From a virus: a stretch of DNA of 64,000 nucleotides. The position numbers were made by a program, and so were the translations under genes. Position 1 is the first letter of the stretch, and each line of letters starts with the position of its first letter. The DNA is taken from positions 32,001-96,000 of IMG/VR virus record IMGVR_UViG_3300022562_002256. One strand, given 5' to 3'. Shown one piece after another: positions 5,155 to 25,501 of this stretch. The notes beneath the pieces were generated by a model that saw nothing but the letters and a program-made list of their open reading frames with translations, had not been told where the DNA came from and did not search any database.

Positions 5155-5170
5155 TGCACGCACCGTGCCA
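5155..5170 (-). promoter_or_regulatory. sigma54-type -24/-12 promoter
   Basis: TGGCACGGTGCGTGCA (GG-N10-GC); ATG 13 nt downstream. Confidence 0.75.
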
Positions 5171-5269
5171 TCGCGGGCGACGTGTGTGCGCGGGGGTCGA
5201 CATGGCGAGTTTCGGCCCAGTTGCCGCTCGACGCGTGGTGCGCTCGACCCCGGCTGGTCAGCCCATCAC

Positions 5270-5365
5270 CACCAAGCGCGTAAGGCCGTGCGCGCTTGGT
5301 GCGTAGCGTCTTGCCAAAACCGCGCACAACTTTACGCGCCTACGTGGATCGACATAGATCCACGT
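5270..5365. repeat. Two inverted repeats between divergent promoters
   Basis: CACCAAGCGCG-N10-CGCGCTTGGTG (5270-5301) and ACGTGGATC-N6-GATCCACGT (5342-5365). Confidence 0.8.
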
Positions 5366-5424
5366 CGGTGCGTTTTCCGGCCGCCGCATGCCATCGGGCG
5401 GCGCCGCCTTGTGTTCGGTCGCCG

Positions 5425-5440
5425 TGGCACGGTGCGTGCA
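5425..5440 (+). promoter_or_regulatory. sigma54-type -24/-12 promoter
   Basis: TGGCACGGTGCGTGCA; ATG 13 nt downstream at 5454. Confidence 0.75.
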
Positions 5441-5453
5441 AGTGGCATCTGGC

Positions 5454-5786
5454 ATGCGAACCAAGTCATCTACCCCCAAATCCGTCGCTCCCGCCTTTCC
5501 GTCCGTCGACGCGCTGTGCGCCGTGCTAAAGCGCATGTTTCTCGGAGCAGCCCTCGAACGTGTGGCGGCCCGGCGTGAGCTCGACTCGATCATCGACGCG
5601 GCCACCGTGGGCGAGCGCGCCCTGGTGGAGGCAATCCAAACGGCCTATGCACAGGGCATCATCGATGGCTCGACTGCGCGGGCACCGGAGGAACCTCGCC
5701 CGGGCAGCAAGGTGATTGGGGCCACTGCGCCGACGCCCCCGACTCCGCCCCGCCGTGTCAGCGGTACGACCCGCGTGTTGGCATAG
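5454..5786 (+). CDS. Hypothetical protein
   Basis: 110 aa, MRTKSSTPK..., directly after the promoter. Confidence 0.6.
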   Translation: MRTKSSTPKSVAPAFPSVDALCAVLKRMFLGAALERVAARRELDSIIDAATVGERALVEAIQTAYAQGIIDGSTARAPEEPRPGSKVIGATAPTPPTPPRRVSGTTRVLA

Positions 5787-5933
5787 TACGTGCATGCACA
5801 TGGGGGGTCGTGTCAACTAGTCACCCACGGCAGGAGGATACCATGTAGCGAATAGCACCGACTCGTTACGCACGCCGGGGCGCGCCAGCGTCCGGCTCGT
5901 GCCTTCATCGCCGGGGCGTGCTATCGTCGCCCC

Positions 5934-7001
5934 ATGGCCAACTTTGTACGTCTGCGCCCTCCTCTCGGGTGGGTATTCGCGAGCACAGTCTCGCCGGCCG
6001 AGTTTGAGGAGTTCGACGACATCCGTCCGAAGCTCATCAACGCCGCCGACGGGAGCACGCACGCGTGCTCATCACAAATCATCCTTGGCGGCGCTGGGCT
6101 GTGGGTGTCGGGCCCCTCGCGGCTGGACGACATCACAGAGGCTGCACTCGACCCCGCGGGGGGCACATTCACCGTGTCACCCGGGGCGACGCTGACAGTC
6201 GCCGGCGGGGCCGCTGACAGCGGCGAGATCCTGGTTACGGACGGCGTTTTCCCCGGCCTGATTACCTTGGAGCAGAACACCGTGCTCACCGCCAAAGGGG
6301 GAGCCACAATCCATGTGGATGTGTCGGCGATCGAGGTGGTAGATGGCGTGCTTCAGGTCGCGAACGGTGGGATCCTCTCGGTATCGCTTGGCGGCACGGT
6401 CATCATCAACAACGGCGCGACCCTGAATTCGGTCGGCACCACCGTGTTCTCCAGCAGCACATGGCCACAGCTCTCTCCGGCGCGCCCGTGGAATCGCCGG
6501 AGCCTAACGATCGCGGCATGCACCGGAACCGACCAGACCATGACGGCCCCCAACGGGAGCACCACGCCGGATGCATGGAAGATCATCCGTTTGGGCAACA
6601 TCGACCAGATTTTCGCGACCAGCACCGACAACCCGGGTGCCAACATGATCATCGAGTTCGCCGACCTGCCACATGGTGCGACGATGGCGCAGGTGGACAT
6701 CACGTGCATTGGCTCATCTCCCGGAACGGGCGGAATGACGTTCCCGTCCTACCAGATCATCCGGTGGACCGGCACTGTGGTGCAAACGATGTCGGCCATA
6801 ATACCGGACAGCCACGTGTTGGCGGACTGGAACGTGTCGGAGCTCACCACGGCCGTGCCGGTCACCTCGCTCGGAACGATCGATCGCACCTATCGATACG
6901 GGTTGCGCGTGTATCTCGCCCATCACTCGCCCCCGGCGGGGCAGGCATACTACACAGATTGCAAGGCCAGCGGTACAGCCGGGTCTATCCAGGTTGGATA
7001 G
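5934..7001 (+). CDS. Putative virion structural or tail-fibre-like protein
   Basis: 355 aa, rich in G/T/V/S beta-strand-like segments (GATLTVAGG, GGTVIINNGATLN); extended -10 TGCTATCGT 6 nt before ATG. Confidence 0.5.
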   Translation: MANFVRLRPPLGWVFASTVSPAEFEEFDDIRPKLINAADGSTHACSSQIILGGAGLWVSGPSRLDDITEAALDPAGGTFTVSPGATLTVAGGAADSGEILVTDGVFPGLITLEQNTVLTAKGGATIHVDVSAIEVVDGVLQVANGGILSVSLGGTVIINNGATLNSVGTTVFSSSTWPQLSPARPWNRRSLTIAACTGTDQTMTAPNGSTTPDAWKIIRLGNIDQIFATSTDNPGANMIIEFADLPHGATMAQVDITCIGSSPGTGGMTFPSYQIIRWTGTVVQTMSAIIPDSHVLADWNVSELTTAVPVTSLGTIDRTYRYGLRVYLAHHSPPAGQAYYTDCKASGTAGSIQVG

Positions 7002-7002
7002 A

Positions 7003-7323
7003 CTACGGCGCGCACGGGGGAGGCCCCCCGTCGTAGTACACAACGCCCCCGTCGGCGAAGTGGCACGCCGCGGCATGGATGTAGTACACGCCACATATTG
7101 GGTCGCACAGGTCACGCGTGCAGTCGTCGCCATCATCGGGATCGATGAGGACGTGTGCTGTCTCGCCGGTGAGCGGGTCACATGAGTCTTCGGTGCAGGC
7201 GTCACCATCGTCGACGATGGCCGGGTCGCACAGCTCAGGCCCGCCGTCGTTTCCGCCAACGACGATCACACCATCACCGCATGCGGCAACGAGCACCAAA
7301 AAAAGAAAAAGTCTGGCCCTCAT
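7003..7323 (-). CDS. Cys-rich lipoprotein of myxobacterial type
   Basis: Signal peptide with lipobox LVAAC; two repeats DDGDACTEDSCDP and DDGDDCTRDLCDP. Confidence 0.75.
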   Translation of the reverse strand: MRARLFLFLVLVAACGDGVIVVGGNDGGPELCDPAIVDDGDACTEDSCDPLTGETAHVLIDPDDGDDCTRDLCDPICGVYYIHAAACHFADGGVVYYDGGPPPCAP

Positions 7324-7334
7324 ATGTCCTCTCC

Positions 7335-7580
7335 TCAGTTCGGCAACCCGCAGTCGGGGAGCGGTGGGGCGGGGGTGAGCCCGCAGTCAAGGTCGGGGCC
7401 ACCGTCCACAGCGCCGCCGCCGGATCCTCCGGCGCCCCCAGTCCCGCCGTCACCGCCCTCCGCGCTCGGTGCGGCGCCACTGCCGCCAGCCCCTCCGTCG
7501 GGCGCCACCCCGCCGCCGCACCCGGCCATGACCATCAGTATGCCGGCGCTGGCCATAATCAAGAGTCGATTGCTACTCAT
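7335..7580 (-). CDS. Gly-rich lipoprotein
   Basis: MSSNRLLIMASAGILMVMAGC lipobox; GGAGGSG linkers; DCGL repeated twice. Confidence 0.7.
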   Translation of the reverse strand: MSSNRLLIMASAGILMVMAGCGGGVAPDGGAGGSGAAPSAEGGDGGTGGAGGSGGGAVDGGPDLDCGLTPAPPLPDCGLPN

Positions 7581-7875: not shown

Positions 7876-7951
7876 GGGGGCTCCTTGGTGCGCGTTGATG
7901 ATAACACCGCCTCAGCTTGACACCACTCCCCGCGGTGCTACATGGCGCACC

Positions 7952-11536: not shown

Positions 11537-12991
11537 ATGCCCAGTCCACCCGACCTCGCGCTCGACCCCAACGACGCCAAGCTCGCCGCTGGCACCAAGC
11601 CGGACGGTACGCCGAGTTCGATCGCGCTCGATGCAGACGGCCAACTCCTCGTCGGCGGCAGTGCGCTGCCGGCTGGCGCCGCAACCAGCGCGTTGCAGGG
11701 CGCTGGGCTGCCCTCTGCGTTCACCGATGGCGGTGGCGTCAAGGTCGGCATCGTCGACGCTTTGCCATCAGGAACAAACACCATCGGCGCAGTCACCGGT
11801 GCCGCTGGCACAGCGCTCGCGACCGAGGATGGGGTCCAGTCGCTTCGGAACCCGTATGGCGAGCTGCGACTGGAGACTGACGCTCTCCAGTATGCCAACT
11901 TCGCGGCCGGTCTCGCCGCTGCGAAGGTGACCCCGAATGTGACCGGCTCGGGCGCCGTGGTGTGGGACACCACCTATCGCTGCGCTCGCCTGTCGGTCGG
12001 AACCGCCGTGGGCACGGCTGTAATTTTGGCTAATACGCCGGGAACCTATCGAACGGACGACGTCAGCGGGCTGGAGGTCACCTTTTTCGTAGGTCCCGAG
12101 CAGGACGCCGCTCTTTTCATCGAAATCGGTGTCATCGCCGACCACGGCCTCGCGAGCTTGTTCCGGTTGACAGACGGCCGCGTGTACATCGTGATTGTCC
12201 ATGCGAGTCTCCCTGGAGGCGAGGAGGCATTTGAGATCACCGACGCCGTGGCGGCTGTCGATTTTGCGGTGGGATGGCATACGATCTCGCTGCGGACCGC
12301 TGGGGAAGGCGGCTGGTGGAGCGAGCTCCGGATTGATGGTATTGTGATTTTTGGTGGGTTTGCACCCCCCGGCCCGATTGTGAGTGCGGCGTGGCATGAA
12401 ACTCGTATCGGTGTGCGTGTGCGATCGACGGCGACCACGCCAGCCGGCGGTTCTGTCTACGTGCGAGGATTTTCGTTCACCACGAACAAGGTGCCGCCGA
12501 TTTCGATCGCGACGGTCACGCGCCCATCGGTGTCTGTTGGAACAACCCAGATCGGCTTGTTCGGCGTCGCCCCGGCCACGACCGTGAATGGGGTGTTCTG
12601 TTATCAGCCGGCCTGGCCAATCGAGTTGGCGCTGGTGACCGAAGCGACGTCGGGGATGGCTTTGTATGCCTATGAAGTAGCCCCATCGGCGCCCGATCCG
12701 TTCAACGGGACCGGAGCGTGGACCGCGGTGCCAGGAACCACGCTCGTGGCGAACACGACGCCCAGTGTCCTGCCTGCCGATCTTGTCTTGCCCGGCGCGA
12801 TATTGCGAGGGATAGCTACACTGTCGAACGACTTGGATCTTTCCGCCATCTACGGGCCCGGGCGTCTGGCGCTCTACGTCCCCCCGCTCGTGACGGCCAG
12901 TTCGCGCCTTGTTGTGGTAGCAGCTCGGGCCAGTGGCGCCGCCGCGCAGACGACCGGCGTTATGTCAATCGGAGTGCAGTACACCACGTAG
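11537..12991 (+). CDS. Putative virion structural protein, possibly with a lectin-like domain
   Basis: GAGGA RBS; LPAGAATSALQ and ALPSGTNTIGAV tail-fibre-like segments; beta-rich body with WHTISL motif. Confidence 0.5.
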   Translation: MPSPPDLALDPNDAKLAAGTKPDGTPSSIALDADGQLLVGGSALPAGAATSALQGAGLPSAFTDGGGVKVGIVDALPSGTNTIGAVTGAAGTALATEDGVQSLRNPYGELRLETDALQYANFAAGLAAAKVTPNVTGSGAVVWDTTYRCARLSVGTAVGTAVILANTPGTYRTDDVSGLEVTFFVGPEQDAALFIEIGVIADHGLASLFRLTDGRVYIVIVHASLPGGEEAFEITDAVAAVDFAVGWHTISLRTAGEGGWWSELRIDGIVIFGGFAPPGPIVSAAWHETRIGVRVRSTATTPAGGSVYVRGFSFTTNKVPPISIATVTRPSVSVGTTQIGLFGVAPATTVNGVFCYQPAWPIELALVTEATSGMALYAYEVAPSAPDPFNGTGAWTAVPGTTLVANTTPSVLPADLVLPGAILRGIATLSNDLDLSAIYGPGRLALYVPPLVTASSRLVVVAARASGAAAQTTGVMSIGVQYTT

Positions 12992-13529
12992 ACCAATGGC
13001 ACGCCGCGGGGCATCGCATGGCGCGTGCCACTCCCACCCCCGCGATGCGCCCACGGTGCCCAGCAGCGCGGAGCGTGGCTGACACCGCTTGAAGGGTTGT
13101 CCCCTCCGTCACCACGTCGTCGATGAGGAGCACGTCCTCATGCGCGCCCAACCCATCCGGCTGATACGCCAGTGAGCGCAGGTGCTCGGCGATGGGTAGC
13201 CCGCCCCGCCCCTCTCGGCGACGCAGCCTCGATGACTCGACGTCGTACGCGCGCACCACTGGCTCCGCCACCCGCGAACCGCCACCCAGCCCGACCAGGG
13301 CTTCCGCGAGGGGCCGAAGGGAGGGGCGCGTCCACGAGGAGCGGGGCACCGGCACAACCACGCCACCGAACGAGGGAATGCACGCCGCAAGCGCCCGCGC
13401 CGAGCGGAGGGTGGCGTCGCGCTCCCCCGCTTTCAACGCCTCAATGATGTCCCGTGCGGCGGCGGTGCGCTGGCTCAACCCGCGGTAGCGCCGCGACAGG
13501 TAGGGGAGAGGAGCGACGATGTTGAGCAT
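12960..13529 (-). CDS. ComF-like type I phosphoribosyltransferase
   Basis: VVVPVP and the PRPP-binding loop VLLIDDVVTEGTTL. Confidence 0.85.
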   Translation of the reverse strand: MLNIVAPLPYLSRRYRGLSQRTAAARDIIEALKAGERDATLRSARALAACIPSFGGVVVPVPRSSWTRPSLRPLAEALVGLGGGSRVAEPVVRAYDVESSRLRRREGRGGLPIAEHLRSLAYQPDGLGAHEDVLLIDDVVTEGTTLQAVSATLRAAGHRGRIAGVGVARAMRCPAACHWSTWCTALRLT

Positions 13530-13698
13530 ACGCCAGCAACTTGCACGATCCGCGCCACAACGGCTCAAGTGGTCAAGCCGCAGCGAACCGCTTCCGTCGC
13601 TCGGCGACCATCGCGTCTGCATACTTCGCGGCACTCTCTGCCATCGTCTCAAATGCGAGCGGAACGGGAAACCGCGCGTCGCGGCCACCATCAACCGG

Positions 13699-14361
13699 CT
13701 ACGTCGCGGCAAGCGCATTGAACACCTCTGCCTCGGTCAGAGGCCGCCCTGCGGTGTTGATGCGTCGGAAGACCTCACGCGCAAGCGCCTCGTCGCCGTG
13801 GACGACGAGCACGCCGACCCGTGTCTCGTGGAGTCTCGCCGCCGCTGCGTAAAGACGAGTCCCGCGGTCTCTAGCCAGGCGCCACGCTGTGTCGTCGGCC
13901 GACGACACAGACTCGTACAAGCCAGTTAAGAATTCTTGACATGCAGCGGTTTCAAGGACCGCGCGCACGGGGGCGTACCGCGCGGGGGGGCGTACCGCGC
14001 TCGCCGGCGCATCGTGTTCTGCCACCACGTATCGATCCTCGTCCATGTCGAATCGAACCGGTGACGTGCCATCCCATGCACGTGCGAGAGACGTGACCCG
14101 CTGCTGACCATCGATCAGCCACGCCGTGGGACCGGTCTGCCAGACTACGATCGTGCCCACGGGCACGCCACGGTCCAGCGAGTCCCATAACGCGGCCTCG
14201 TCCGCCGGTTCCCAGCAGAAGGGGCGCTGAAATGCGGGCACGCGCCACCCGCCTGCTGCGGCGTGCTCGGCGACGTGCGCGACCCACAACGCTGCCGGCT
14301 CAACGCCACCCCACAACGAGTGCCGGCGTGTGGGAGGCGGGGTATGTTTGGGCCGACTCAT
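13699..14361 (-). CDS. Stand-alone DUF262 (GmrSD N-terminal / ParB-like) protein
   Basis: VPAFQRPFCW, LIDGQQRVTSL and VFRRINTAGRPL are the DUF262 signature motifs. Confidence 0.85.
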   Translation of the reverse strand: MSRPKHTPPPTRRHSLWGGVEPAALWVAHVAEHAAAGGWRVPAFQRPFCWEPADEAALWDSLDRGVPVGTIVVWQTGPTAWLIDGQQRVTSLARAWDGTSPVRFDMDEDRYVVAEHDAPASAVRPPARYAPVRAVLETAACQEFLTGLYESVSSADDTAWRLARDRGTRLYAAAARLHETRVGVLVVHGDEALAREVFRRINTAGRPLTEAEVFNALAAT

Positions 14362-14636
14362 TGCCCGACCTTGCGCCCCGCCACGTCCACGGCGTCGTCG
14401 ACGTAAACCCCACGTTCCTGGCGCCACGTGCGTCCCCATGTGGGCGGGGGGCCGTGCGCGTTCTCGCGCTCGAGTCGGGCGGGCACACCCTCAAGGCTGC
14501 CGGCCTTGAGGGACACCTGCGTTTGCGCTGGGCAGCGCCGCCCAAAAAGCTCTACCGCGTCGTCCGGTGACGCGGCGAGCAGCGCCCCGATGACCCGACC
14601 GGGGGGGAACACCTTGATAACGAACCACTCGCTCAT
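14358..14636 (-). CDS. Hypothetical protein
   Basis: MSEWFVIKV...; ATG 12 nt after the promoter; stop overlaps the DUF262 start. Confidence 0.6.
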   Translation of the reverse strand: MSEWFVIKVFPPGRVIGALLAASPDDAVELFGRRCPAQTQVSLKAGSLEGVPARLERENAHGPPPTWGRTWRQERGVYVDDAVDVAGRKVGQ

Positions 14637-14648: not shown

Positions 14649-14664
14649 TGCACAGGCCGTGCCA
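14649..14664 (-). promoter_or_regulatory. sigma54-type promoter
   Basis: TGGCACGGCCTGTGCA; ATG 12 nt downstream. Confidence 0.7.
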
Positions 14665-14936
14665 ACCGAGATGCCCCTGCCGGCGAGGTGTTCAGTGGTT
14701 TGGTGGTGTTCAGTATTGGCTGTGGCGTTATGCCACGGAGTTGTTCCGGGATCGCGTGCTGACAGCCACTTGAGTGCTGGCTCTGCGATGTGTGGCACTC
14801 CGCCACACCGTGGCAACATGCCACGCCCCGCCGACGCGGCCAAGTGCTCGAAATCATTGACGCGGCGTGGATCGACCCCGATCCGCCACCGTAAGGCAAC
14901 ATACGGCACGCCCCCAACAACGCCACAACCACCAGG

Positions 14937-14952
14937 TGGCACGGCGCGTGCA
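14937..14952 (+). promoter_or_regulatory. sigma54-type promoter facing the non-coding region
   Basis: TGGCACGGCGCGTGCA; predicted +1 sequence GGCGTAACGACGG is identical to that of the 17733-17748 promoter. Confidence 0.7.
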
Positions 14953-14962: not shown

Positions 14963-15660
14963 GGCGTAACGACGGTCGGCACCCGCAGCCCGCGTGTGCT
15001 ACAACCGCCGAGAACGGAGGAGACGGTCGCGGGGTTACGAGGTGGATCGGTCGAACTGGTCTTGTCGAGGTGATACCTCAATTAAGCGCGAAAGCGGCGC
15101 TGACCCCACCGAATCGAGGCACGTACGCACGAAAAATGTGGAGCACGGCGTGACCACACGTGATTGTCGACGTAACCCTGCGGCCAGTCCCCACGTCACG
15201 AATGGAGTTCGGTCAAGCATACCAGGGATAGAGTTCAGCCTGGGACGGTACGCGCCGCACCGTGAGAGTGCCAAGCGCCTCTTAGCCGTCAGTTAAAGCC
15301 CCGTAAAACCCCCCGCAGGGGGGCGGGGTCGGATGACCGGGCAAGTCATCCGACGTAAGCCGGGCACCCGACTCTATCCCTGATATGCTCGACCGAACCC
15401 CCACCTGTCTGCGGCACGCATTATGCATGAGTTCTCGACGTCGGCGTCGGCGACAGCCGACCGACCCGGTAGGCGGTGACCAATCCGCACCGGTCATCCC
15501 ACCCCGGCCTCTCCGGAGGCACCCACGTCCCGCCACCAGGCGGCCCTAACTGAGCCTCCCGCAAGGTCACCTCTCCCCGCCGTGGTGCGGCGAGTGGGCG
15601 ACCACCGGGAGCGACGACGAAGGAGCATGATGTCAGCGCGAAGCGATGTCGCCGCGCTGA
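14963..15660 (+). ncRNA. Candidate large structured RNA (boundaries and strand inferred)
   Basis: No convincing ORF; 15-bp helix 15025-15039/15171-15185; 31-bp helix 15204-15234/15371-15401; many perfect hairpins. Confidence 0.55.
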
Positions 15661-15664
15661 CCTT

Positions 15665-15747
15665 GGAGGGTTGCCCGAGTGGTCAAAGGGAGCAGATTGT
15701 AAATCTGCCGGCGAAAGCCTTCGGTGGTTCGAGTCCACCACCCCCCA
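15665..15747 (+). tRNA. tRNA-Tyr (GTA)
   Basis: Acceptor GGAGGGT/ACCCCCC; GCAGA-TTGTAAA-TCTGC; class II variable arm; GGTGG-TTCGAGT-CCACC; A73; no encoded CCA. Confidence 0.95.
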
Positions 15748-15775
15748 CCCAATTTCAATACCAACGGAGCACCAC

Positions 15776-16185: not shown

Positions 16186-17349
16186 ATGGCTATGTTGGCG
16201 GCCATGGATTTTAGTCTTGCAGCGAAGGATTTCAGCGCAGCCGTACACCGCTGTACGGCTGCGACCAACAAAACCAGCGCGATGCCGGTGCTCGCAACCG
16301 TGTTGCTCCGGGCGGGCCCCGGTGAAGTCACGGTCACTGGCACCGACCTCTACAACACCGTCGCCGTTCGGGTGGCGGCTGATGTGGCGCGACCGGGGGC
16401 GTACTGCCTCGATGGGGTCGACCTGGCCAAGCGCATCCAAGCGATGCCGGGGGGAGTCGTCCAGATCGTTCAGGCTCCGCCAGCGACCCCGGATACCCCG
16501 CTCGGTCCCGTAAAAATCCAGGCAGTGGGGACACGACGGGCCTTCGTCATGAGTGGGATCCCCGCTCATGACTACCCAAACGTGGAGGCGTCGCTCGACG
16601 CCACCCCACTCGCCTTGCCCGCCGGGGTGCTCACGCGACTGCTACGCCAGGTCATGGCGTCGATTTCGACGGACGAAACCCGAGCACACGTCAACTGCGC
16701 TCGGGTGGAGTTGAAGGGTTCGTCGGCGCGCATGGTGTCAACCGACGGGCATCGTTTGACCCTTGCCACCGCCACCTTGCCCGACAAGGCGCTCCCCTGC
16801 GTCGAGGCGCTGCTCTCGCGCGCGGCGGCTGGCATCCTGCGCAAGCTCTTGGAAGAGGTGAACCCAGCCACGGATGTCAGCCTGCGTTTTGCATCGCCTT
16901 CGCTTGTTGTAAGCGTGGGGAACGTCACATTTACGACAAAGCTCGTAGACGCGGCGTTCCCGCCATATCAGCAGGTCGTTCCCGCCCCGCGCGACGTGTC
17001 GTACCGGGTTGCGCGCCTTCCCCTCCTGGACATGGTGAAGGCTGTCGCGATTGCGAGCGACACCCACGGGATTCGACTGACGTTTGGTCAGGACAATATC
17101 CTCGCGGAGGGGAACAATGCCGAGCTTGGAAGCGGATCCGACGAGATCGGATGTGTGGCCGGTCCTGGCGCGGTTCCACCGGCATTTGTAGCTGCCTTCA
17201 ACTCGAGTTACCTCCGGGACGCGCTGAGCGTCACCGACGTGGACGAGGTGGCTCTGACGATCGACGGGGAGCTCTCCCCGCTGGTCATCAAACCAGTCGG
17301 AGCCGACGAGCCGTCTTACCTGGCAGTCGTGATGCCCATGCGGGTCTGA
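16186..17349 (+). CDS. dnaN: DNA polymerase III beta sliding clamp
   Basis: SAMPVLATVLL, GTDL, ISTDETRAHVN, MVSTDGHRL, FPPYQQVVP, AFNSSYLRDAL, VVMPMR. Confidence 0.95.
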   Translation: MAMLAAMDFSLAAKDFSAAVHRCTAATNKTSAMPVLATVLLRAGPGEVTVTGTDLYNTVAVRVAADVARPGAYCLDGVDLAKRIQAMPGGVVQIVQAPPATPDTPLGPVKIQAVGTRRAFVMSGIPAHDYPNVEASLDATPLALPAGVLTRLLRQVMASISTDETRAHVNCARVELKGSSARMVSTDGHRLTLATATLPDKALPCVEALLSRAAAGILRKLLEEVNPATDVSLRFASPSLVVSVGNVTFTTKLVDAAFPPYQQVVPAPRDVSYRVARLPLLDMVKAVAIASDTHGIRLTFGQDNILAEGNNAELGSGSDEIGCVAGPGAVPPAFVAAFNSSYLRDALSVTDVDEVALTIDGELSPLVIKPVGADEPSYLAVVMPMRV

Positions 17350-17350
17350 C

Positions 17351-17732: not shown

Positions 17733-17748
17733 TGCACGCACCGTGCCA
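17733..17748 (-). promoter_or_regulatory. sigma54-type promoter
   Basis: TGGCACGGTGCGTGCA. Confidence 0.75.
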
Positions 17749-17847
17749 ACAGGCAACGCGGGGTCGCCATGCCCACAAACCAGCGGCGATCTGGCGGAGT
17801 TGGCACTCCGCCCCGAACTTCGCGCGCTTGGATGACGACACATGGCG

Positions 17848-17978
17848 CGCACTTCTTGCGTTTAGCCGGCAGAATTTACCGGCACCTGATGGCAGCCACT
17901 TGAGTGCTACATCGTGAGCGCCACCGTAAGCGGATTCACCAACCTGCCAAAATCGACGCGCAAACGGTGCGTGTTGGG
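17848..17978. repeat. 131-bp intergenic repeat, copy A
   Basis: Ungapped match to 25257-25387 with 16 mismatches by manual count. Confidence 0.95.
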
Positions 17979-18063
17979 ATCATAGTCCAGAATCGGCGGA
18001 GCGCCCGGCTGGACTCAGCCCCCGAAACCACGACGGTTTCGATATGGCGACGTAGAGCACCGT

Positions 18064-18079
18064 TGGCACGGTGCGTGCA
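18064..18079 (+). promoter_or_regulatory. sigma54-type promoter
   Basis: TGGCACGGTGCGTGCA followed by AGTGCCGTCTGGCATT, homologous to 5441-5456. Confidence 0.75.
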
Positions 18080-18107: not shown

Positions 18108-18539
18108 ATGCACGAGTGTGTAAAGGACGGCGAGTACATCCTGGGCGTGGAGGAGACGATGCCGCCTGGGCCTTACGACCTTGAGCCTCGGTGGGTGGAG
18201 TCGGAGACCACGCTCGGCCTCAGCGTGGGCACGGTCTGGGCCCCGAACGCCATCACGCCAACAAATGTCAAGGAGCATGTCATCGTGGCGTGGTCGGACG
18301 ACTCACTCGTCCTTCTCCGGCGCAAACAAGACGACGGTCGTCCGCCGTGGCTCCTCTCTCGACGGTTGTTCCTGGAGAAATACGTGGCTGTCGATGTCAC
18401 GTGGCTGCCGTTTGACGGCGATGGCTCCTGCCGTGACTGGTGCCTCGGCTGGGACGGAGCAAGCAGCCGCTGTGACTGCGGCAATCGCCGACTGCACTGG
18501 GAGACAAACGACGGCGTGCCAACCCCCACGGTGTGGTGA
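18108..18539 (+). CDS. Hypothetical protein
   Basis: AGGAGG RBS; 143 aa; C-terminal C..WC..W..C.CG motif. Confidence 0.7.
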   Translation: MHECVKDGEYILGVEETMPPGPYDLEPRWVESETTLGLSVGTVWAPNAITPTNVKEHVIVAWSDDSLVLLRRKQDDGRPPWLLSRRLFLEKYVAVDVTWLPFDGDGSCRDWCLGWDGASSRCDCGNRRLHWETNDGVPTPTVW

Positions 18540-18605: not shown

Positions 18606-18621
18606 TGGCACAGCACGTGCA
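18606..18621 (+). promoter_or_regulatory. sigma54-type promoter
   Basis: TGGCACAGCACGTGCA; ATG 13 nt downstream. Confidence 0.7.
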
Positions 18622-18634: not shown

Positions 18635-18811
18635 ATGAAGAAGTCGCCAAGCACTAAGAAACCATTGCCCGACTACGGTCCTGTCAACCCGCCGATGCGC
18701 GTTTGGTTGCGCATCGTCAATGGGCATGTTGTCGAAACGTTTTTTTCCTCGCAGGCCGCAAACGCCTCTGAGGACCAAGATCACATCCACGCCTACGTAC
18801 TCGAGGAGTGA
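18635..18811 (+). CDS. Hypothetical protein
   Basis: 58 aa, MKKSPSTKK... Confidence 0.55.
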   Translation: MKKSPSTKKPLPDYGPVNPPMRVWLRIVNGHVVETFFSSQAANASEDQDHIHAYVLEE

Positions 18812-19064: not shown

Positions 19065-22000
19065 TCATGCCGGCACCATAACCACGGCGTCGACCATGGC
19101 TAGGGTCGGCGGGCTGTCCGGCGGCACAAGGAGCACCGTGCCGAGCCCCAACTCCCTAACCGCGGCGCGCAGCATGCTGAACCACGCCTCAACGCATGGC
19201 CCCCGCAGCGGGCCTGATGTCTCGTCAAAGGCGAGGGTCGCCCCCGGCACCGCGCCCCACCGTTCGATCACTACTCCCGCTGTCGCCAGCGCGAGCGCGG
19301 TGCTCAGTAGCGCTCGCTCGCCTTTGGAGCACGCTCGCACCTCTCGTTCGCGTTGGTCCGGATGGCTGATCGCGATCCACCGCGCCTGCTCAATCGAGCG
19401 CTTACCCCGTGCGGCCGTCCGTGTTCCACGGTACTCGATCGACCACCCCGCACCATCGGCTGCGCGTAACAAGTCGGTTGCGATCTCGGCGATCTCCTCC
19501 CCGGCCAACTCCATCTCGAGCGCCTGGACCCCGTCACGGCCGAGTGCTTGCGCCAGCTCGCCCGCGTCCTCGGCCCGCCGCTCCAGTTCTTCGGTGGCCT
19601 CACGGACTCGGGCAGCCCTCGCTGCGGCATCCCGCTCCCGGGCGAGGCGGTCTACCGCAAGCGCAAGCCGTGTCGCGGCGACGGAGGCGCCCCGCGCCGC
19701 GTGTTCTACGTCAGCTTGGCCCACCGGGGCCGGCTCGTCACCAAAAGCCTGTAGCACGGCCGAAGCGTCGGTGTGTCGGGCTGTCGCGTCGGCGAGTTGG
19801 TCGTCGAGGAGGGCCACGCGCTCAGCCGCTCGGATGGCCTGGGTCGAGCGGGTCTGGGCGGCGACCAGCGCGCGATGACGTGCTTCCAGCGAATGCCGTT
19901 CCGTCGCCACCTCGTCGATGCTCCTCAATGCCGCTGCGCGCGCGGCCCTGAGCGGGGCGAGTTCGTTCGCGATGGTGACAAGACGCGCGGCGATCCCGCC
20001 GCGCGTTCTCTCAGCGGTGGCGATGGCAGCGTCGATGTCGGCCACCAGGCGAGTCGGTGCACGTGCGAGTCGTTCCCGTGCTGCGGCAAGTCGCGCAGCG
20101 GCGCTGGCAGCGCGTGATGTCAGGTCCACGATGTTCGGATGGGTGTAGGCATCATCGGCGGCGATGGCACGGCGAGAGCGTCGCCTCACCTCGGCCACGC
20201 TGCTCGATGCCACGTCGGGAGATGCCGCGACAATCGCTGAGGCGGCGATCCGGCCGATGTCGGTGAGCGCGGTGCGCAAGGGGGTCACGCGCCCGGTCTG
20301 AGCGACGTGCGTGGCTGCTTCCAGCGCGGCGGCGGCGGCTCTCTCGGATGCCTCCAACTCCGGGAGGCTCTCCCGCAGCCTCTCGGCACCCTCGGCCTGG
20401 GTTCGCTCCGCACGCAAAGCGTCGAGGCGGTGGTCGATGTCTGCAAGCGCGCGGGCTGCCTCGTGTTCGGCGTCGCGACTGGAGCGAATCGCCTCGTCGG
20501 CTGTGCTGACGTCAGCTCGCAAAACGCTCTCCCGCTGGCGCAGCACATCGAGCGCTTCAACCACCTCCTCGATGTGTTCGGGGGGGGGCGCTGCGCAATC
20601 GGCCGCTTGTCTTGCCGCCGCGAGCTCGGTGGTCAGCCGTTCGACTCGCACTGCCGCCGCGTCGGCGGTGGTGCAAAGCGCGCGCCACTGAGTCCACCGC
20701 GCCGCGTCGACGCGGGCTTGAGCGGCGGCGCAGTCGGCGGTGTGGCTTGCGGCCGTCGCATCGACAACCGCTCGTTCGGCACCCGTAACGTCGACGGGAC
20801 CGATCGCTGTGCTCTCTGTGCGCTTAGCGGCGACATCCTTGTCGATCGCGGCCCGCGCCGCCCGTGCCGCCGCTGCCCATGCTTCATAGTTCCCGGCGCC
20901 CAGGATGCCCAATAACGCGGCTTTCAGCCCCGAGTCGTACAGCGTGCCGATCCCATCGCTCCCGTCCCATAGAAAGGCGAACGCGAGCAACAGCACCGGG
21001 TCGGGCAGGTGCTGGCGCGCCCACTCACGGAACGCCTGGCGCCCGCCGACGAACGTGGCGGCGTCCTCGCCCAACGGGCAAACACGCACGGTGCCACCGC
21101 CATCGGTCATTTCGTGATGGATTGTCCATGCCCCTGTGGCGGTGACAACCTCCACCTCGAGATACGGGTTGGGGCCGGTGACCATCCTGTCGAACGCGCC
21201 GTGTGTGGGGCTTTCCTCTCGCAGCGCCGCGAGCATGAGACCGAGCAGCGTGCTCTTCCCCGCCCCGTTCCCGCCCGCGAGTGCCACGATCGGCGGCATA
21301 TCGCGCACCAGATACTCGGCCTCGCCGACGAAAGGGCCGAGCCCCCGACACGCTACACGCTCGAATCGCACCAGTCCCCCAGCGTCTTCCGGGGATGTCG
21401 CCACCATCTCATCGAGCATGGCGAGCACCCGCTCCCGACGTGCCGGCCGTCGACCAATGGCTGTCCAATAGGCGTCGAGCCTATCGTGGACGGACGGAAC
21501 CTTGTCGATGCCCGCCGCACGCGCACGGGTGACCCGTTGGGGCACAGGTTCAAGTTTGACCGCGACCGCCCCCGCGGCGAGGATGTCGTCTCGCGCCGAC
21601 TCGGCGGCGGCCACGATGCACGCGCGGTTGGCGTCGGTGGTGGTGTAACGAAGCCGCACGTCCGCACCTCGACACGACGCCAGCGTCGGTGTCGCGTCGC
21701 CTGCAGCGTGCTCTCGCCCGTAGGACAACACCAGACCCGCCCCGGCTACCCAGTTGCCAACAAGCAGAACCAGCGGCGTGGCGGGGGCGATGCGCCGCTC
21801 GAACGATACACGACGCCCGTCGACGTGAACAAGTACATAGCCCTTTGGCCCCAGCTCGCCGTATGTCGTGGCATACGGCGCCCCCGGGTAGCAGGCTGGC
21901 CGCCCCCCGATGAGCCAATCCTGCGCCGCGTGGACGTGGCCGAGTAGGTAAGCGTCGGCCGCCGCGCGAGCCAGGTCGTCGTTTGTCACGTCGAGGTCGC

Positions 22001-22559
22001 CCCGCCCTTGCGCCGGCTGGTCGTTCGACAGCCGTGCCCCGGCGACCATGGCATGCCCCACCAAGATGCGCGCGGCGTCAGTGCCAACGATGGCTGCCCC
22101 CAAGTCGTCCAGGATCGCGCGCATCTCTTCGCGAAGCGCAGCCGTTGTCGGTGTGCCCCCCCGCGCCTGGACGCGTCGGAGCAAGTCTGCACGCCGGAGA
22201 TGAGGCAGACAGGCAAGGCGCACGCCGGCCACGTCTATCACTCCGGGCTGCTCTACCACCGTAACGGGGTGCGCCGTGCCGAAGGAGTCGAGGATCGCCA
22301 GGTCTCGTTCGACGTCGTGATTGCCCGCGACCACGACGAGCGGGGCTGTGCGGGTGGCTTCTCTGCAAAACCACCGCGCCACGAGCCGCTCGTCGGGGCG
22401 CGAACCGGAGTGATACACGTCCCCCGCGACTACGGTGGCGGCGACGTTCGCTCGCGCGGCGTCATCAAGGATCCACTCCAAGATGCGTTGGCACTCGGAC
22501 AGCCGACCACCAGGCCGCGCCGAGATGTGAATGTCCGCGAGCGCGGCGATGGTCGTCAT
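19065..22559 (-). CDS. SbcD (Mre11)-SbcC (Rad50) fusion nuclease/ATPase
   Basis: Phosphoesterase motifs DIH, GDVYH, GNHD, GH and GHVH; Walker A GGNGAGKST; coiled coil; signature CSKGE; Walker B AFDE. Confidence 0.9.
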   Translation of the reverse strand: MTTIAALADIHISARPGGRLSECQRILEWILDDAARANVAATVVAGDVYHSGSRPDERLVARWFCREATRTAPLVVVAGNHDVERDLAILDSFGTAHPVTVVEQPGVIDVAGVRLACLPHLRRADLLRRVQARGGTPTTAALREEMRAILDDLGAAIVGTDAARILVGHAMVAGARLSNDQPAQGRGDLDVTNDDLARAAADAYLLGHVHAAQDWLIGGRPACYPGAPYATTYGELGPKGYVLVHVDGRRVSFERRIAPATPLVLLVGNWVAGAGLVLSYGREHAAGDATPTLASCRGADVRLRYTTTDANRACIVAAAESARDDILAAGAVAVKLEPVPQRVTRARAAGIDKVPSVHDRLDAYWTAIGRRPARRERVLAMLDEMVATSPEDAGGLVRFERVACRGLGPFVGEAEYLVRDMPPIVALAGGNGAGKSTLLGLMLAALREESPTHGAFDRMVTGPNPYLEVEVVTATGAWTIHHEMTDGGGTVRVCPLGEDAATFVGGRQAFREWARQHLPDPVLLLAFAFLWDGSDGIGTLYDSGLKAALLGILGAGNYEAWAAAARAARAAIDKDVAAKRTESTAIGPVDVTGAERAVVDATAASHTADCAAAQARVDAARWTQWRALCTTADAAAVRVERLTTELAAARQAADCAAPPPEHIEEVVEALDVLRQRESVLRADVSTADEAIRSSRDAEHEAARALADIDHRLDALRAERTQAEGAERLRESLPELEASERAAAAALEAATHVAQTGRVTPLRTALTDIGRIAASAIVAASPDVASSSVAEVRRRSRRAIAADDAYTHPNIVDLTSRAASAAARLAAARERLARAPTRLVADIDAAIATAERTRGGIAARLVTIANELAPLRAARAAALRSIDEVATERHSLEARHRALVAAQTRSTQAIRAAERVALLDDQLADATARHTDASAVLQAFGDEPAPVGQADVEHAARGASVAATRLALAVDRLARERDAAARAARVREATEELERRAEDAGELAQALGRDGVQALEMELAGEEIAEIATDLLRAADGAGWSIEYRGTRTAARGKRSIEQARWIAISHPDQREREVRACSKGERALLSTALALATAGVVIERWGAVPGATLAFDETSGPLRGPCVEAWFSMLRAAVRELGLGTVLLVPPDSPPTLAMVDAVVMVPA

Positions 22560-22617
22560 GAGCGCGTCACGGCCGCAATGTATGACCGAGTTTGGCTGAG
22601 GTCAACGCGACCGTCCG

Positions 22618-23742
22618 CTACGCCGCAGGCGGCGGGGGCCGATCGGAGCCCGGCACCTGCGGCGGCGCCCCGTCCGTCAACCGCGGATCAACGGGGGCTG
22701 TGACGCCTGCCTTTTCGCACTCCTCGGCGAACCGGGCGTTGAATGTGGCGCCGAGAGACACCATGCGCTCAGGGCTCACGCCAAATTTCTTGAATGCCGC
22801 GAAGAGCCCCTTCTTGGCTGACGCGAGGGCGGCGAACCGTTTCTCGTTCGAGTCTGACATAACTTGTGGCTCCGACGCCTTCTGGATGGCCGCAGCCAGC
22901 GCCTCGCCCACCGTCCGAGGCTCGGCCGGCGTTGGCGCGTCACTAAGCCAGTCAGCGATGATTTGAGCGAAATCATCTCCTGGATTCATAAACACGTCCC
23001 CGGGGGGGAGCAAGTCACACCGCGTCTTGGCAACAATGAGCCGCACCTCGGTTCGCGGCTTCCGCCCGGCCGTTTTCGCGGCAGTGACGTCCGAGACGAT
23101 TGGGACCTGCACCAATTCGCAGAAGAGGTCGGGCTCGTACTCGATGCCCTTCCGTGCGACCGGTCCCAGTCCAACCTTGGTGGGCTCGAGCTTACCCTTA
23201 TCGGTTTGGCTAATTACGTAGTCCATCTCCGATCGAAGGGTGCCTATGATATGGCACGGGCTCTCCAGAATACGCTGGACAAAGCGTGTGTGCGCCGGGG
23301 ACATCTTCCGCCAACCGGTCGAAAAGGCGTTCTTTGACGTGGACCCCTCGGTGATCCTGTCCACCGACTCGAGAACCCCGCCGATGCCAGCCCACACAGG
23401 GCTGAACGAGTCAACAACGATGACGCCGGCCCGCTGCGCTTCGCAGAAGTCGAGGGCCGCTGTATATGCCTCGATTGACTGGTCGTCTGCTGGCATGGGG
23501 ACGTGTTTGAATTGGAACCCGGTGCCCCGGCGAGGAGAGTACGCGTACTTCAGCAGCGACTTGTTCTCCACGTCGACTGCGTACACCGGCCCGAGATTCA
23601 GCGTCCGTACGAGGAACGTCGCGACCGAGAGGGCGGTGTAGCTCTTGCCACTTCCCGCAGGGCCAGCCAGAAATAGGCGCAGGAGAATGCCCTCCCGCGT
23701 TGCATCACGTGCTTGAAACTGGTACTTTTGACTGGTTTGCAT
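22618..23742 (-). CDS. Sak4-like AAA_24 phage recombinase ATPase
   Basis: LFLAGPAGSGKSYTAL, VIVVDSFS, GWRKMSP, IIGTLRSEMDY, GIEYEPD. Confidence 0.8.
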   Translation of the reverse strand: MQTSQKYQFQARDATREGILLRLFLAGPAGSGKSYTALSVATFLVRTLNLGPVYAVDVENKSLLKYAYSPRRGTGFQFKHVPMPADDQSIEAYTAALDFCEAQRAGVIVVDSFSPVWAGIGGVLESVDRITEGSTSKNAFSTGWRKMSPAHTRFVQRILESPCHIIGTLRSEMDYVISQTDKGKLEPTKVGLGPVARKGIEYEPDLFCELVQVPIVSDVTAAKTAGRKPRTEVRLIVAKTRCDLLPPGDVFMNPGDDFAQIIADWLSDAPTPAEPRTVGEALAAAIQKASEPQVMSDSNEKRFAALASAKKGLFAAFKKFGVSPERMVSLGATFNARFAEECEKAGVTAPVDPRLTDGAPPQVPGSDRPPPPAA

Positions 23743-23783
23743 GCCAGAAGCATAACCACTGCATTCATGCATGCAACAGACCG

Positions 23784-24251
23784 TCACCGGCTCACACGGT
23801 CGCCGCGGCACCGCTTCCGCGAGCGCGGACCGCTGCTGCCGGGCCCGTCACCGGCGAGATGCACGCGGATGGAGTCGCCCCCGGTCGTAAACGTGCCATC
23901 CGCGGCCGGTCGCAGCCGAGCGGGCATGAGCACCACCACGCCCCCAGAAACGTCGAGGCGGCGCTCCCCCGCGTCCGGAAGCACATCAAGAAGCGCTGCC
24001 CGCAGCGCTGCCGACCGCTGACTATCCGTGGCGATGCGTCGCTCTACCTCAACCAGCTCGGCGGCGAGTGCAGTGGCCCGCGCGCGTAGCTCACCCGGCG
24101 TAGCCGGCCACCCGTCGTCGATGATGGCAGTGTCGGGCCCACCCGTCGCCCCGAGCGAGAAGGGCCCCGACCGCATGGTGTCCGGAGCGTCCGCGGCGCC
24201 CTCCGGCGTTGTGTCTGGGCACAGATCGTCGACCAAAAGTGAGGTGCTCAT
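23784..24251 (-). CDS. Hypothetical coiled-coil protein heading the recombination operon
   Basis: LAAELVEVERRI..LRAALLDVL; positional analogy to Gp157/Gam-like genes only. Confidence 0.5.
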   Translation of the reverse strand: MSTSLLVDDLCPDTTPEGAADAPDTMRSGPFSLGATGGPDTAIIDDGWPATPGELRARATALAAELVEVERRIATDSQRSAALRAALLDVLPDAGERRLDVSGGVVVLMPARLRPAADGTFTTGGDSIRVHLAGDGPGSSGPRSRKRCRGDRVSR

Positions 24252-24263
24252 GCCGCGCGACCA

Positions 24264-24279
24264 TGCACCATCCGTGCCG
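24264..24279 (-). promoter_or_regulatory. sigma54-type promoter of the recombination operon
   Basis: CGGCACGGATGGTGCA; ATG 12 nt downstream. Confidence 0.6.
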
Positions 24280-24348
24280 CTCTGGTGGTGACGCCACCGC
24301 CGCTAGCACGCGACCGCGAAAAATCAACTGGATCGACGGTGCACCATG

Positions 24349-24364
24349 TGGCACACTGCGTGCA
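24349..24364 (+). promoter_or_regulatory. sigma54-type promoter
   Basis: TGGCACACTGCGTGCA; ATG 12 nt downstream. Confidence 0.7.
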
Positions 24365-24376
24365 TGAGGTTGAGCC

Positions 24377-24772
24377 ATGGAACCGAACGTCGCCACCACG
24401 GCCCCCGCACGAAGGGGCCGCCCCCGTAAGCCCGCCCCGCCCCCTCCGGACCCCGCTCGGCTCGAAGCCGCTCTCGAGATCGCCAGAAGCCTCGAGCCCG
24501 GGTCACTGGTGTTTGTCGAGTATGTCGCTGCGTCAGCGGCGCACCCCAGCCCCGCCGCGCTGCGGTCGGTTGCGGCTGGATTCCCCCAGAGTTACTACGT
24601 CGGGACATACCTCGGGTACCACCTAACGGCCGCCGGGCACGTTGTCCTGCGGCTGGAGGTCATCAACCGAGGGGGCGAGCGCCGCGCCATCAACCCGCTC
24701 AAGGGCGACTTGCGCGCGGTCCGGGTCATACACCCCGCCCCGCCCCCCGACGCTATGCCCATTGCGTCGTGA
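24377..24772 (+). CDS. AT-hook-containing protein
   Basis: RRGRPRKP followed by a small beta domain. Confidence 0.6.
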   Translation: MEPNVATTAPARRGRPRKPAPPPPDPARLEAALEIARSLEPGSLVFVEYVAASAAHPSPAALRSVAAGFPQSYYVGTYLGYHLTAAGHVVLRLEVINRGGERRAINPLKGDLRAVRVIHPAPPPDAMPIAS

Positions 24773-25020
24773 TGCCCGCCCGCTGGTACATCCCTGGGTC
24801 TGCGATTGCTGCGGCAGTCCGACGAGTGGCACCGGGTAAGCGGCCTCCGCTCGCCCTCCTTGCCCCGCTGGAGCGGCTTTGTCTGCGTGCCGCGGGGAGA
24901 CTGCCTCACGTTCCCATGGAATCTGCCAGGACCCCCGGCCGTGCGAGCGCGGGGTACAAGAAGGCGCTCGTGAAAGCCATCAGGCGTGCGTGCTGTGCCC
25001 CCGACTTACGGAGGTGGTAA
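24769..25020 (+). CDS. Hypothetical protein
   Basis: 83 aa, coupled to both neighbours. Confidence 0.5.
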   Translation: MMPARWYIPGSAIAAAVRRVAPGKRPPLALLAPLERLCLRAAGRLPHVPMESARTPGRASAGYKKALVKAIRRACCAPDLRRW

Positions 25021-25021
25021 G

Positions 25022-25249
25022 ATGGACAGGTTGCCTCGCGGCGAGTTCGTGCAAACGTGGTTTGACGGAGGTCGAGACGGATCCGGGTTCACATTCGGCG
25101 TCATCGAGGCCAGCGGGCCCACGGCGTTCGTGGTCAGATGGGAAAGCGGTAACCGACACCGCCGCAAACACGGGCATCCCGACATCCACCGCATCACCGA
25201 TCCAGAGTTGCGCCTCGAGGCGGCGCGCACACTGAAACGAACGACCTAG
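25022..25249 (+). CDS. Hypothetical protein, SH3-like
   Basis: GGAGGT RBS; FGVIE..GPTAFVVRWESG. Confidence 0.6.
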   Translation: MDRLPRGEFVQTWFDGGRDGSGFTFGVIEASGPTAFVVRWESGNRHRRKHGHPDIHRITDPELRLEAARTLKRTT

Positions 25250-25256
25250 ACCCAAA

Positions 25257-25387
25257 CGCACATCCTGCGTTTAGGCGGCAGAATTTACCGGCACCTGGCG
25301 GCAGCCACTTGAGTGCTACGTCGTGAGTGTCACCGTAAGCGGATTCACCAACTAGGCAAAATCGACGCGCAAGGCGTGCGCGCTGGG
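25257..25387. repeat. 131-bp intergenic repeat, copy B
   Basis: See 17848-17978. Confidence 0.95.
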
Positions 25388-25485
25388 CCAACTTTCCAGA
25401 CTTGGCGGGCCGCGCGCGTCGGCCGGGCGCCGTCAAAACATCGCGCAAATTGAGGGATCGCCCCAAGAGCACAAGCGCCGATGGT

Positions 25486-25501
25486 TGGCACGCCACGTGC
25501 A
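25486..25501 (+). promoter_or_regulatory. sigma54-type promoter
   Basis: TGGCACGCCACGTGCA; ATG 13 nt downstream. Confidence 0.7.

Follow-up and report, generated by a model that had tools for sequence, protein, structure and literature searches.

The question raised by this locus is what reads a 16-bp sequence that, in a single phage genome, stands again and again directly in front of start codons. The DNA analysed here (the window) is 64,000 nucleotides long and comprises bases 32001-96000 of a single 198,045-bp IMG/VR virus record (IMGVR_UViG_3300022562_002256), with direct terminal repeats, a completeness rating of 100% and a GC content of 66%. Positions with the prefix G000 refer to the whole 198,045-bp genome, all other positions to the window. 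An earlier note on the window had taken the 16-mer for a sigma-54-type (-24/-12) promoter and had proposed a phage expression class, including a recombination operon, that is gated by sigma-54 and produces near-leaderless transcripts. The motif occurs far more often than expected by chance, is polar, stands at a fixed distance from the starts of open reading frames (ORFs) and recurs in other phages. To our knowledge, sigma-54 is the one bacterial sigma factor that is unable to start transcription without an ATP-driven activator, and it is regarded as a tightly gated host system for stress and development. We favour the reading, at a probability of about 0.6, that the phage has a genome-wide class of sigma-54-type promoters which the host RpoN holoenzyme recognises and which give mRNAs with leaders of 0-4 nt.

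A polar motif at a fixed distance from start codons

In the window the sequence GGCAC-N5-GTGC occurs 13 times against 2.2 expected copies, and none of 100 shuffled sequences reached 13. The full 16-mer was found at all ten positions listed in the earlier note, on the strands given there, as were the four divergent pairs formed by eight of them and a weaker copy at 5779(+). Three further sites, at 1486(-), 665(-) and 13542(-), were added, and the window holds 13-15 sites in all. The genome-wide scan that the note had recommended gave numbers far above chance: 45 strict sites (approximately 0.3 expected), 59 sites matching a regular expression (4 in the control) and, with a position weight matrix built from the 45 strict sites and applied at a cut-off of 10 bits, 72 sites (1-3 in Markov shuffles).

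Two stretches of the genome, G000 1-57 kb and 106-175 kb, are filled with sites, which avoid the replication module (G000 58-105 kb) and the structural module (G000 177-198 kb). Thus the regulon is not confined to the 5-25 kb portion of the window and spans most of the genome except these two modules. Beyond 25.5 kb, where the note had noticed none, the window itself has only one good site, 33352(-), and three weak ones; outside the window the sites resume, in G000 1-26 kb and 106-175 kb. Since 52 of the 72 sites lie in the approximately 23% of the genome that a crude codon-usage gene caller left uncalled (our definition of intergenic), the motif is not equally frequent inside coding regions, a distribution that the note had named as evidence against its proposal. 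Most of the remaining 20 sites coincide with the 3' end of an upstream gene or with an ORF start that had been extended too far.

Alignment of the 60 strongest sites (the strong set) gave the consensus (G)(G/T)TGGCAC(G/A)G-NN-C-GTGCA-(A/T). GG-N10-GC, the core of -24/-12 promoters, is invariant in it, and the flanking TGGCAC and TGCA are conserved. Position -20 is occupied by G in 49 and by A in 11 sites, position -15 by G in 53, A in 4 and T in 3, and position -11 by A in 55, T in 4 and C in 1. The only systematic departure from the sigma-54 consensus TGGCAC-N5-TTGCW is the replacement of T by G at -15, in those 53 of 60 sites. No conserved element was found at a fixed distance upstream of the motif in the strong set.

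Downstream of the motif and in its orientation, an ATG follows after 12-14 nt at 39 of the 72 sites, and the ORFs opened by these ATGs are 53-330 codons long (median 96, strong set), with a third-position GC content (GC3) of approximately 0.7 or more. A distance of 12-14 nt from the promoter core to the ATG leaves no room for a ribosome-binding site. A tetramer resembling the Shine-Dalgarno (SD) sequence was present in only 2 of 32 motif-ATG spacers, as compared with 68 of 199 other genes. The start region has the signature G-N-C-ATG-A, with a C directly before the ATG in 29 of 32 cases. Whatever the offset of the ATG, G is enriched 9-10 nt after the motif, that is, 18-19 bp from the motif centre, and a GGC-purine element is also found after the promoters of non-coding RNAs and after that of the SD-led mRNA at 18064. 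At sigma-54 promoters the start is expected approximately 11-12 nt downstream of the GC, at a distance of 19 bp from the centre of the motif. A study by chromatin immunoprecipitation sequencing (ChIP-seq) in E. coli likewise puts it at 19 bp (PMC4591121). Judged from these positions, transcription of the phage genes may start at the G, with a leader of 2-4 nt as the result, or at the purine that follows the C, in which case the mRNA would begin with AUG. The conserved C-ATG suggests that the start could be shifted 2-3 nt further on than the canonical one.

In the mechanism that we propose, approximately 60-70 copies of the motif would drive the recombination operon, one of the phage's sigma-factor genes, a few non-coding RNAs and, for the rest, small non-structural genes that are mostly of unknown function. 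The reader would be the RpoN holoenzyme of a Polyangiales myxobacterium, with initiation either at the G that lies 18-19 bp from the centre of the motif or at the first base of the start codon, behind the conserved C. With a leader of 0-4 nt and no SD sequence, translation would be of the leaderless type. About one promoter in four has a phage-specific, dyad-rich cassette 75-250 bp upstream, which could act as an enhancer site.

Recurrence in other phages and comparison with known promoters

A relative of the phage, Logan SRR29078114_7489 (117.6 kb, GC 55%, capsid 41% identical), has eight to ten sites of the form TGGCACG-N4-CTGCAATA in 10 kb of small genes, five of them with an ATG at 12-13 nt. 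The layout is therefore older than the genome studied here, and the dyad formed by GCAC and GTGC is dispensable. IMG/VR was scanned with the pattern TGGCACG-N4-GTGCA-N11-12-CATG, which matched 59 stretches, and several of the contigs concerned carry many more sites than the query demanded. When the relative and eight or more of the IMG/VR contigs were pooled (eleven loci, 116 kb), 58 sites were counted against 0 in the controls. None of the 58 is palindromic, 37 have an ATG at 12-14 nt, and in 34 of these 37 the ATG is preceded by C. At position -15 the pooled sites have G 39, C 10, A 6 and T 3, and at -11 they have A 53 and T 5. Comparison of the phage proteins with these IMG/VR loci by tblastn gave almost no matches. 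The recurrent combination of "not T" at -15 with A at -11 suggests a promoter subclass tuned for something. One locus, L119 (IMGVR_UViG_3300014613_000025), has twelve GTGCA-type sites in 7 kb, most with ...ACC-ATG at 15 nt, a variant spacing. The structural-module loci of closer relatives (L015, L112 and L113) had no sites, as is the case for the phage's own structural module, and are uninformative.

Canonical TGGCAY-N5-TTGCW sites are also abundant in IMG/VR: among the matches listed, 120 loci held at least 443 against 5 in the controls, in contigs with a GC content of 30-66%. At many of these TTGCW-type loci (L176, L190, L229, L241, L152 and L116/L125/L163) the sites form face-to-face palindromes or tandem arrays with a period of 25-40 bp. 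Matches combining TTGCA with CATG were not counted as leaderless promoters, because the CATG often belongs to an inverted TGGCATG. The spacers in these arrays are not conserved, so the arrays are not hairpins; from their arrangement they look like protein-binding arrays rather than promoters, and perhaps they are sigma-54 traps or sites of another protein.

Bacterial sigma-54 promoters such as glnAp2 and fdhF of E. coli and actB, nla28 and nla6 of M. xanthus share with the phage motif GG-N10-GC, TGGCAC and TGCA, a single orientation that does not vary, a purine where the canonical start would lie, and the association with dyad-rich sequences, which here lie 75-250 bp upstream. The phage differs from them in having approximately 60-70 copies in one genome, in the nearly fixed G at -15 and A at -11, and in a start codon only 2-4 nt from the predicted transcription start. 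In five large Polyangiaceae genomes (the family of the probable host, see below) TGGCAY-N5-TTGCW was enriched, with 19-30 copies per genome versus 4-11 for a reversed-pattern control, and was almost always TTGCT, whereas TGGCAY-N5-GTGCW was not (22-44 copies versus 63-102 in the controls). The phage promoters are therefore not copies of the host's. This mismatch concerns likeness to host promoters and not the ability of sigma-54 to bind. It is softened by the acceptance of bases other than T at -15 elsewhere: the M. xanthus promoters listed in PMC9765219 have CTGCT, GTGCT and GTGTT at the -12 element, the -12/-24 regions of nla28 (CTGCT) and nla6 (GTGTT) having been tested by mutation and the GTGCT site being putative, and the in vivo ChIP sites of sigma-54 in E. 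coli given in PMC4591121 include GTGCA, CTGCA and ATGCA, the last being the confirmed fdhF promoter. Entries compared from Table 1 of the latter study have predicted starts 25-204 nt before the gene, and among these entries the start-to-gene spacing of 2-4 nt seen here is without precedent (PMC4591121). Our full-text literature searches returned no description of a phage that uses sigma-54 for its main promoter class, nor of sigma-54 promoters that abut start codons or give leaderless mRNAs.

Three phage systems invite comparison. Leaderless phage mRNAs are known from lambda (cI, transcribed from PRM) and from middle and late genes of the Thermus phages phiYS40 and P23-45, where they depend on sigma-70-type -10 elements. 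For Deinococcus-Thermus the cited text describes the pattern as "-10 adjacent to ORF" (PMC12340547). The lambda cI, phiYS40 and P23-45 cases are alike in the promoter abutting the ORF, in the lack of an SD sequence and in the genome-wide layout, and differ in that the abutting promoter here is of the -24/-12 and not of the -10 type. Late transcription of T4, with gp55, gp33 and the gp45 sliding clamp as a mobile enhancer, uses a sigma-70-family factor and a -10-only TATAAATA promoter. The likeness is one of logic only, namely enhancer-like, ATP-dependent activation without a classical DNA-bound activator; the phage has its own beta clamp (gene at 16186-17349), no homology to the T4 system was found, and the -10-only TATAAATA promoter of T4 is of another build. 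The hairpin promoters of the N4 virion RNA polymerase contain a short inverted repeat approximately one helical turn upstream of the start, and a short conserved inverted repeat in about that position is also seen here; they differ from the phage motif, which lacks covariation, a giant virion RNA polymerase and, in the relative, the dyad itself.

Host, phage-encoded factors and the reader of the motif

The phage stands far from known ones. Megablast of 20 kb revealed no close cultured relative, its capsid and portal proteins are only approximately 25% identical to those of known phages (32% over a short stretch in one; tblastn), and neither a single-protein locus search of IMG/VR for relatives nor a single-protein scan of genome contigs with RecD2 gave matches. 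Its head module is Mu-like. DnaB is 52-55% identical to its best homologues, the named ones all being from Polyangiaceae (Sorangium, Polyangium, Chondromyces and Minicystis), and RecD2 is approximately 50% identical to homologues of which all named ones are from Myxococcota. A tRNA-Tyr gene at 15664-15751 (+) has tRNA-Tyr counterparts with 88-93% identity in 316 of 383 Polyangiaceae genomes, a tally that takes in the unpublished genomes G279, G318 and G319 and whose outcome does not depend on these three. This gene was the sole match when 19.9 kb were compared with the 383 genomes by BLAST, a search that gave no CRISPR-spacer or prophage link. Judged by DnaB, RecD2 and tRNA-Tyr, the host is probably a Sorangium-like myxobacterium of the Polyangiaceae or Polyangiales. 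The DNA-binding domain of RpoN was present in all 31 sampled Polyangiaceae genomes, which together with the likeness of the three phage genes makes a myxobacterial host with sigma-54 likely. In the DnaB helicase itself (53050-54825, +) the conserved C-terminal domain is in two stretches separated by approximately 50 unmatched residues (~398-446).

Sigma54 DNA-binding and core-binding domains are absent from the phage. The enhancer-binding protein that the earlier note had considered as a possible phage-encoded gate, and for which it had advised a search, did not turn up either: in the complete genome the PF00158 family model matched only Walker-A stretches (in RecD2 and a putative loader) and gave no true match, and the GAFTGA motif does not occur in any frame. 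The sole classic AAA ATPase of the phage (31714..32940, -; 408 aa), preceded by a sigma-70-like GTGACA-17-TATGGT sequence, was considered as a hidden enhancer-binding protein and rejected. It belongs to a family of approximately 400-aa proteins (91 relatives at E values below 1e-30), and its structural model (pLDDT 91), like its sequence, is that of the classic AAA proteins Bcs1, YjoB and the proteasomal ATPases, not that of enhancer-binding proteins. There was no family match to a T7-like RNA polymerase, in a search that is weak, as its controls found nothing either, and no NADFDGD-type (DxDGD) RNA polymerase catalytic motif in long frames.

The phage has genes for three proteins of the sigma-70 family, each with regions 2 and 4, and models of the RpoD/RpoS type are their closest matches. 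Two of the genes, at 45556..46608 (+) and at 63272..64000 (+), the latter running past the end of the window (G000 95272-96246), are inside operons of the motif-free replication region. The third, at G000 22641-23594 (-), lies behind a motif site: the ATG of this site opens a 24-codon ORF whose stop codon, TGA, overlaps a TTG that is in frame with the sigma gene, an arrangement which suggests a leaderless upstream ORF translationally coupled to the sigma gene. Promoters of the TTGACA-N16-17-TA.. type are present elsewhere in the genome.

Two families of repeats fill the space between divergent promoter pairs. The type-A cassette (approximately 150 bp, nine copies in the genome, core GCCGGTAAATTCTGCCGGC) is found at 17833..17997 (-), between the divergent promoters 17748(-) and 18064(+), and at 25242..25406 (-), upstream of the promoter 25486(+). 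The type-B cassette (approximately 245 bp, four copies in the genome) ends in a promoter of its own, TGGCACGGACAGTGCA; the copy at 14690..14952 (+) consists of the repeat, 14690-14936, followed by the promoter, 14937-14952. Dyads lie 75-215 bp upstream of the type-B promoter, three of the form GTGGC-N5-GCCAC and one of the form TGGATC-N6-GATCCA, and type B shares AGCACTCAAGTGGCTGNCA with type A. In all, dyad-rich cassettes lie at -75 to -250 of approximately 13 promoter regions, about a quarter of the sites. Their position and multiple dyads are as expected of sigma-54 enhancers, and on these grounds they are the best candidates for enhancer sites. A search of 201 Polyangiaceae genomes with type A, the sole cassette searched, gave only chance-level matches, and mimicry of a host enhancer by cassette A was rejected on this result. 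If the cassettes are enhancers, the protein that binds them is more likely to be phage-encoded.

A -35/-10 promoter of the sigma-70 family does not fit the motif, because its two conserved blocks are 5 bp apart, a gap that regions 2 and 4 of such a factor do not span, and because the 12-13 nt spacer lacks a conserved -10 element. The motif could nevertheless be a promoter read through a factor that the phage specifies instead of by plain host sigma-54, such as one of its sigma-70-family proteins working in a non-standard mode, a protein of the sigma-54-like or appropriator kind that escaped detection, or one redirecting RNA polymerase to GTGCA-type sites. Such a factor would agree with the three sigma-70-family genes, one of them behind a promoter of this very class, with the lack of an enhancer-binding protein in the phage, with the systematic departure of the motif from the host family (GTGCA versus TTGCT), with the rarity of T at -15 across the phages having the layout (3 of 58 sites), and with the many phage proteins for which there is no explanation. 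We regard this explanation, the main rival, as the less likely one, as the geometry of the motif excludes the known mode of action of sigma-70 proteins, the TTGACA-type promoters elsewhere in the genome are available for them, and a Sigma54 DNA-binding or core-binding domain is missing. In addition, phages with no relation to this one by tblastn have the layout as well, and a gene for sigma-70 region 2 was found in only one of five such contigs (four of the five records being incomplete). That unrelated phages have this layout in common but no sigma gene speaks for a reader supplied by the host.

The earlier note had also offered a dimeric regulator as the alternative, on the grounds that GCAC-N5-GTGC is a formal dyad. 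The 16-mer would then be bound by a repressor, an activator or a nucleoid-type protein and would not be a promoter, and the palindromes and tandem arrays of TGGCAY-N5-TTGCW in many IMG/VR contigs do resemble protein-binding arrays. This explanation did not hold up. The motif is strictly polar toward the downstream gene, its positions 2 (G) and 16 (A) are invariant and not complementary, positions 7 and 11 do not co-vary, the CTGCA of the relative destroys the dyad, and none of the 59 regular-expression sites of the genome is palindromic. Nor is a -35/-10 pair found flanking the site, so that it could not serve as an operator, and a regulator site is thus improbable. Still less credit is due to an N4-type hairpin promoter, or another element acting at the RNA level, that would serve an RNA polymerase of the virion or a different one of the phage. 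In the commonest variant, GCACG-GTG-CGTGC could fold into a stem of 5 bp closed by a loop of 3 nt; however, the fifth pair shows no covariation, with A or G at position 7 facing an unchanged C at position 11, and the largest ORF of the phage (1164 aa) encodes a nuclease/ATPase, no RNA polymerase motif or family having been detected.

For the sigma-54 reading itself several observations count as unfavourable. The phage motif (GTGCA) differs from the TTGCT pattern of the candidate host at -20, -15 and -11. Sigma-54 needs an enhancer-binding protein, and none is encoded by the phage or, as far as four incomplete records out of five allow, by five other motif-bearing contigs, where one weak match proved to be a ComM/Mg-chelatase-type ATPase. 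Three sigma-70-family genes imply that the phage re-programmes RNA polymerase. The cassettes serve only about a quarter of the sites, and the pair 24264/24349 has only 70 bp between its promoters. Initiation at the A of the ATG would place the GC at -14/-15, 2-3 bp beyond the canonical distance. No regulon of this kind was seen in the cultured Myxococcus phage Mx1 (1 site versus 1-3 in controls), so that it is not a general habit of myxophages. Finally, the assignment of the host is based on approximately 50-55% protein identity and one tRNA, not on a CRISPR spacer. Taken together with the evidence above, the claim of the earlier note stands in part: a dedicated promoter class with predicted near-leaderless transcripts, the recombination operon included, is well supported, and sigma-54 as its reader is plausible, because the motif agrees in core sequence and in spacing, rpoN is carried by the probable host family and the layout is found in unrelated phages.

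Predicted promoters along the window and their wider meaning

The seven sites for which the earlier note had reported an ATG 12-13 nt downstream all have it. The promoter at 5155..5170 (-), TGGCACGGTGCGTGCA, is followed after 13 nt by the ATG at 5141, which opens a leaderless-type ORF of 65 codons (4944..5141, -; GC3 0.75). Its divergent partner at 5425..5440 (+), again TGGCACGGTGCGTGCA, has the ATG at 5454, also after 13 nt, and an ORF of 110 codons (5454..5786, +). The promoter at 14649..14664 (-) precedes the ATG at 14636 (ORF 14358-14636, 92 codons), and that at 18606..18621 (+) the ATG at 18635 (ORF 18635-18811, 58 codons). At 24264..24279 (-) the variant CGGCACGGATGGTGCA has its ATG at 24251 and heads the Sak4/SbcCD-like recombination operon (19065..24251, -), which consists of a 155-aa ORF, an AAA_24 (Sak4-like) ATPase gene (22618-23811) and the gene of the 1164-aa protein (19065-22559), the latter with Metallophos and ABC-type ATPase domains. 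The promoter at 24349..24364 (+), with the ATG at 24377, serves an ORF of 131 codons (24377-24772), and that at 25486..25501 (+), with the ATG at 25515, one of 69 codons (25515-25724). To these seven can be added the variant TGGCGCGGATCGTGCA at 13542..13557 (-), where the ATG at 13529 opens an ORF of 189 codons (12960-13529).

Other sites lead into longer leaders or RNAs. After the promoter at 18064..18079 (+), where ATTAGGAGG follows, the mRNA would be leadered, with AGGAGG before the ATG at 18108 (ORF to 18539), as the earlier note had described. The promoter at 1486..1501 (-), TGGCACAGGACGTGCA, precedes an AGGAAG-led ATG at 1462 (ORF 875-1462). No ATG occurs at 12-14 nt after the variant TGGCATAGTACGTGCA at 5779..5794 (+), and the gene that follows, 5934-7001, would have a leader of approximately 130 nt; the region 5779-5850 contains AGGAGG and then ATG-TAG, a start abutting a stop, approximately 90 nt before that gene. 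The weaker promoter TGGCACGAATGATGCA at 665..680 (-) lies in front of a tRNA/tmRNA-like RNA (651-527), whose Rfam-defined 5' end (651, minus strand) falls exactly 13 nt past it. This RNA (527-651, -) is tRNA-shaped and fits the tmRNA model at the ends of the model only, with 26 bits, below the gathering score.

At 14937-14952 (+) and at 17733..17748 (-), the latter TGGCACGGTGCGTGCA, the place of an ATG at 12-14 nt is taken by a shared GGCGTAACGACGG. The non-coding transcript region 14963..15660 (+) starts with GGCGTAACGACGG and runs to the tRNA-Tyr gene. The promoter-linked transcripts 14963-15200 (+) and 17719-17480 (-) have an identical GGCGTAACGACGG start and then diverge, with a column identity of 69%. 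Transcripts starting with GGCGTAACGACGG are probably non-coding RNAs or leaders with a common 5' module. The canonical-looking TGGCACGGGGCTTGCA at 33352..33367 (-), of the TTGCA type, lies within the 3' end of the RecD2 gene and is of doubtful function. Perfect hairpins built on GGCAC...GTGCC, CAGGCACAATCCGTGCCTG and CCGTGGCACAAAGTGTGCCACGG, at 57720-57745 and G000 177625-177655, satisfy the loose motif on either strand, but their appearance is that of terminators.

If the phage promoters are read by host sigma-54, the question becomes what opens approximately 70 enhancer-dependent promoters when the phage brings no enhancer-binding protein. A tentative extension of this reading, to which we give rather low odds, is that a class of uncultured phages, made up of this one, the distant relative and at least eight contigs unrelated to it by tblastn, has its early or accessory genes transcribed from host sigma-54 promoters that are joined directly to the start codon and fire without a classical enhancer-binding protein. 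One may speculate that activation would then be owed to a novel type of activator, or to a bypass tied to the atypical -12 element, to the cassettes or to an ATPase that is not an enhancer-binding protein, such as the Bcs1-like AAA protein. Since the layout is found in other metagenomic phages, the answer would apply beyond this genome. The layout offers compact, possibly orthogonal cassettes made up of a promoter and a start codon. Were host sigma-54 indeed the reader, expression of the phage would be tied to the very large networks of sigma-54 and its activators in myxobacteria.

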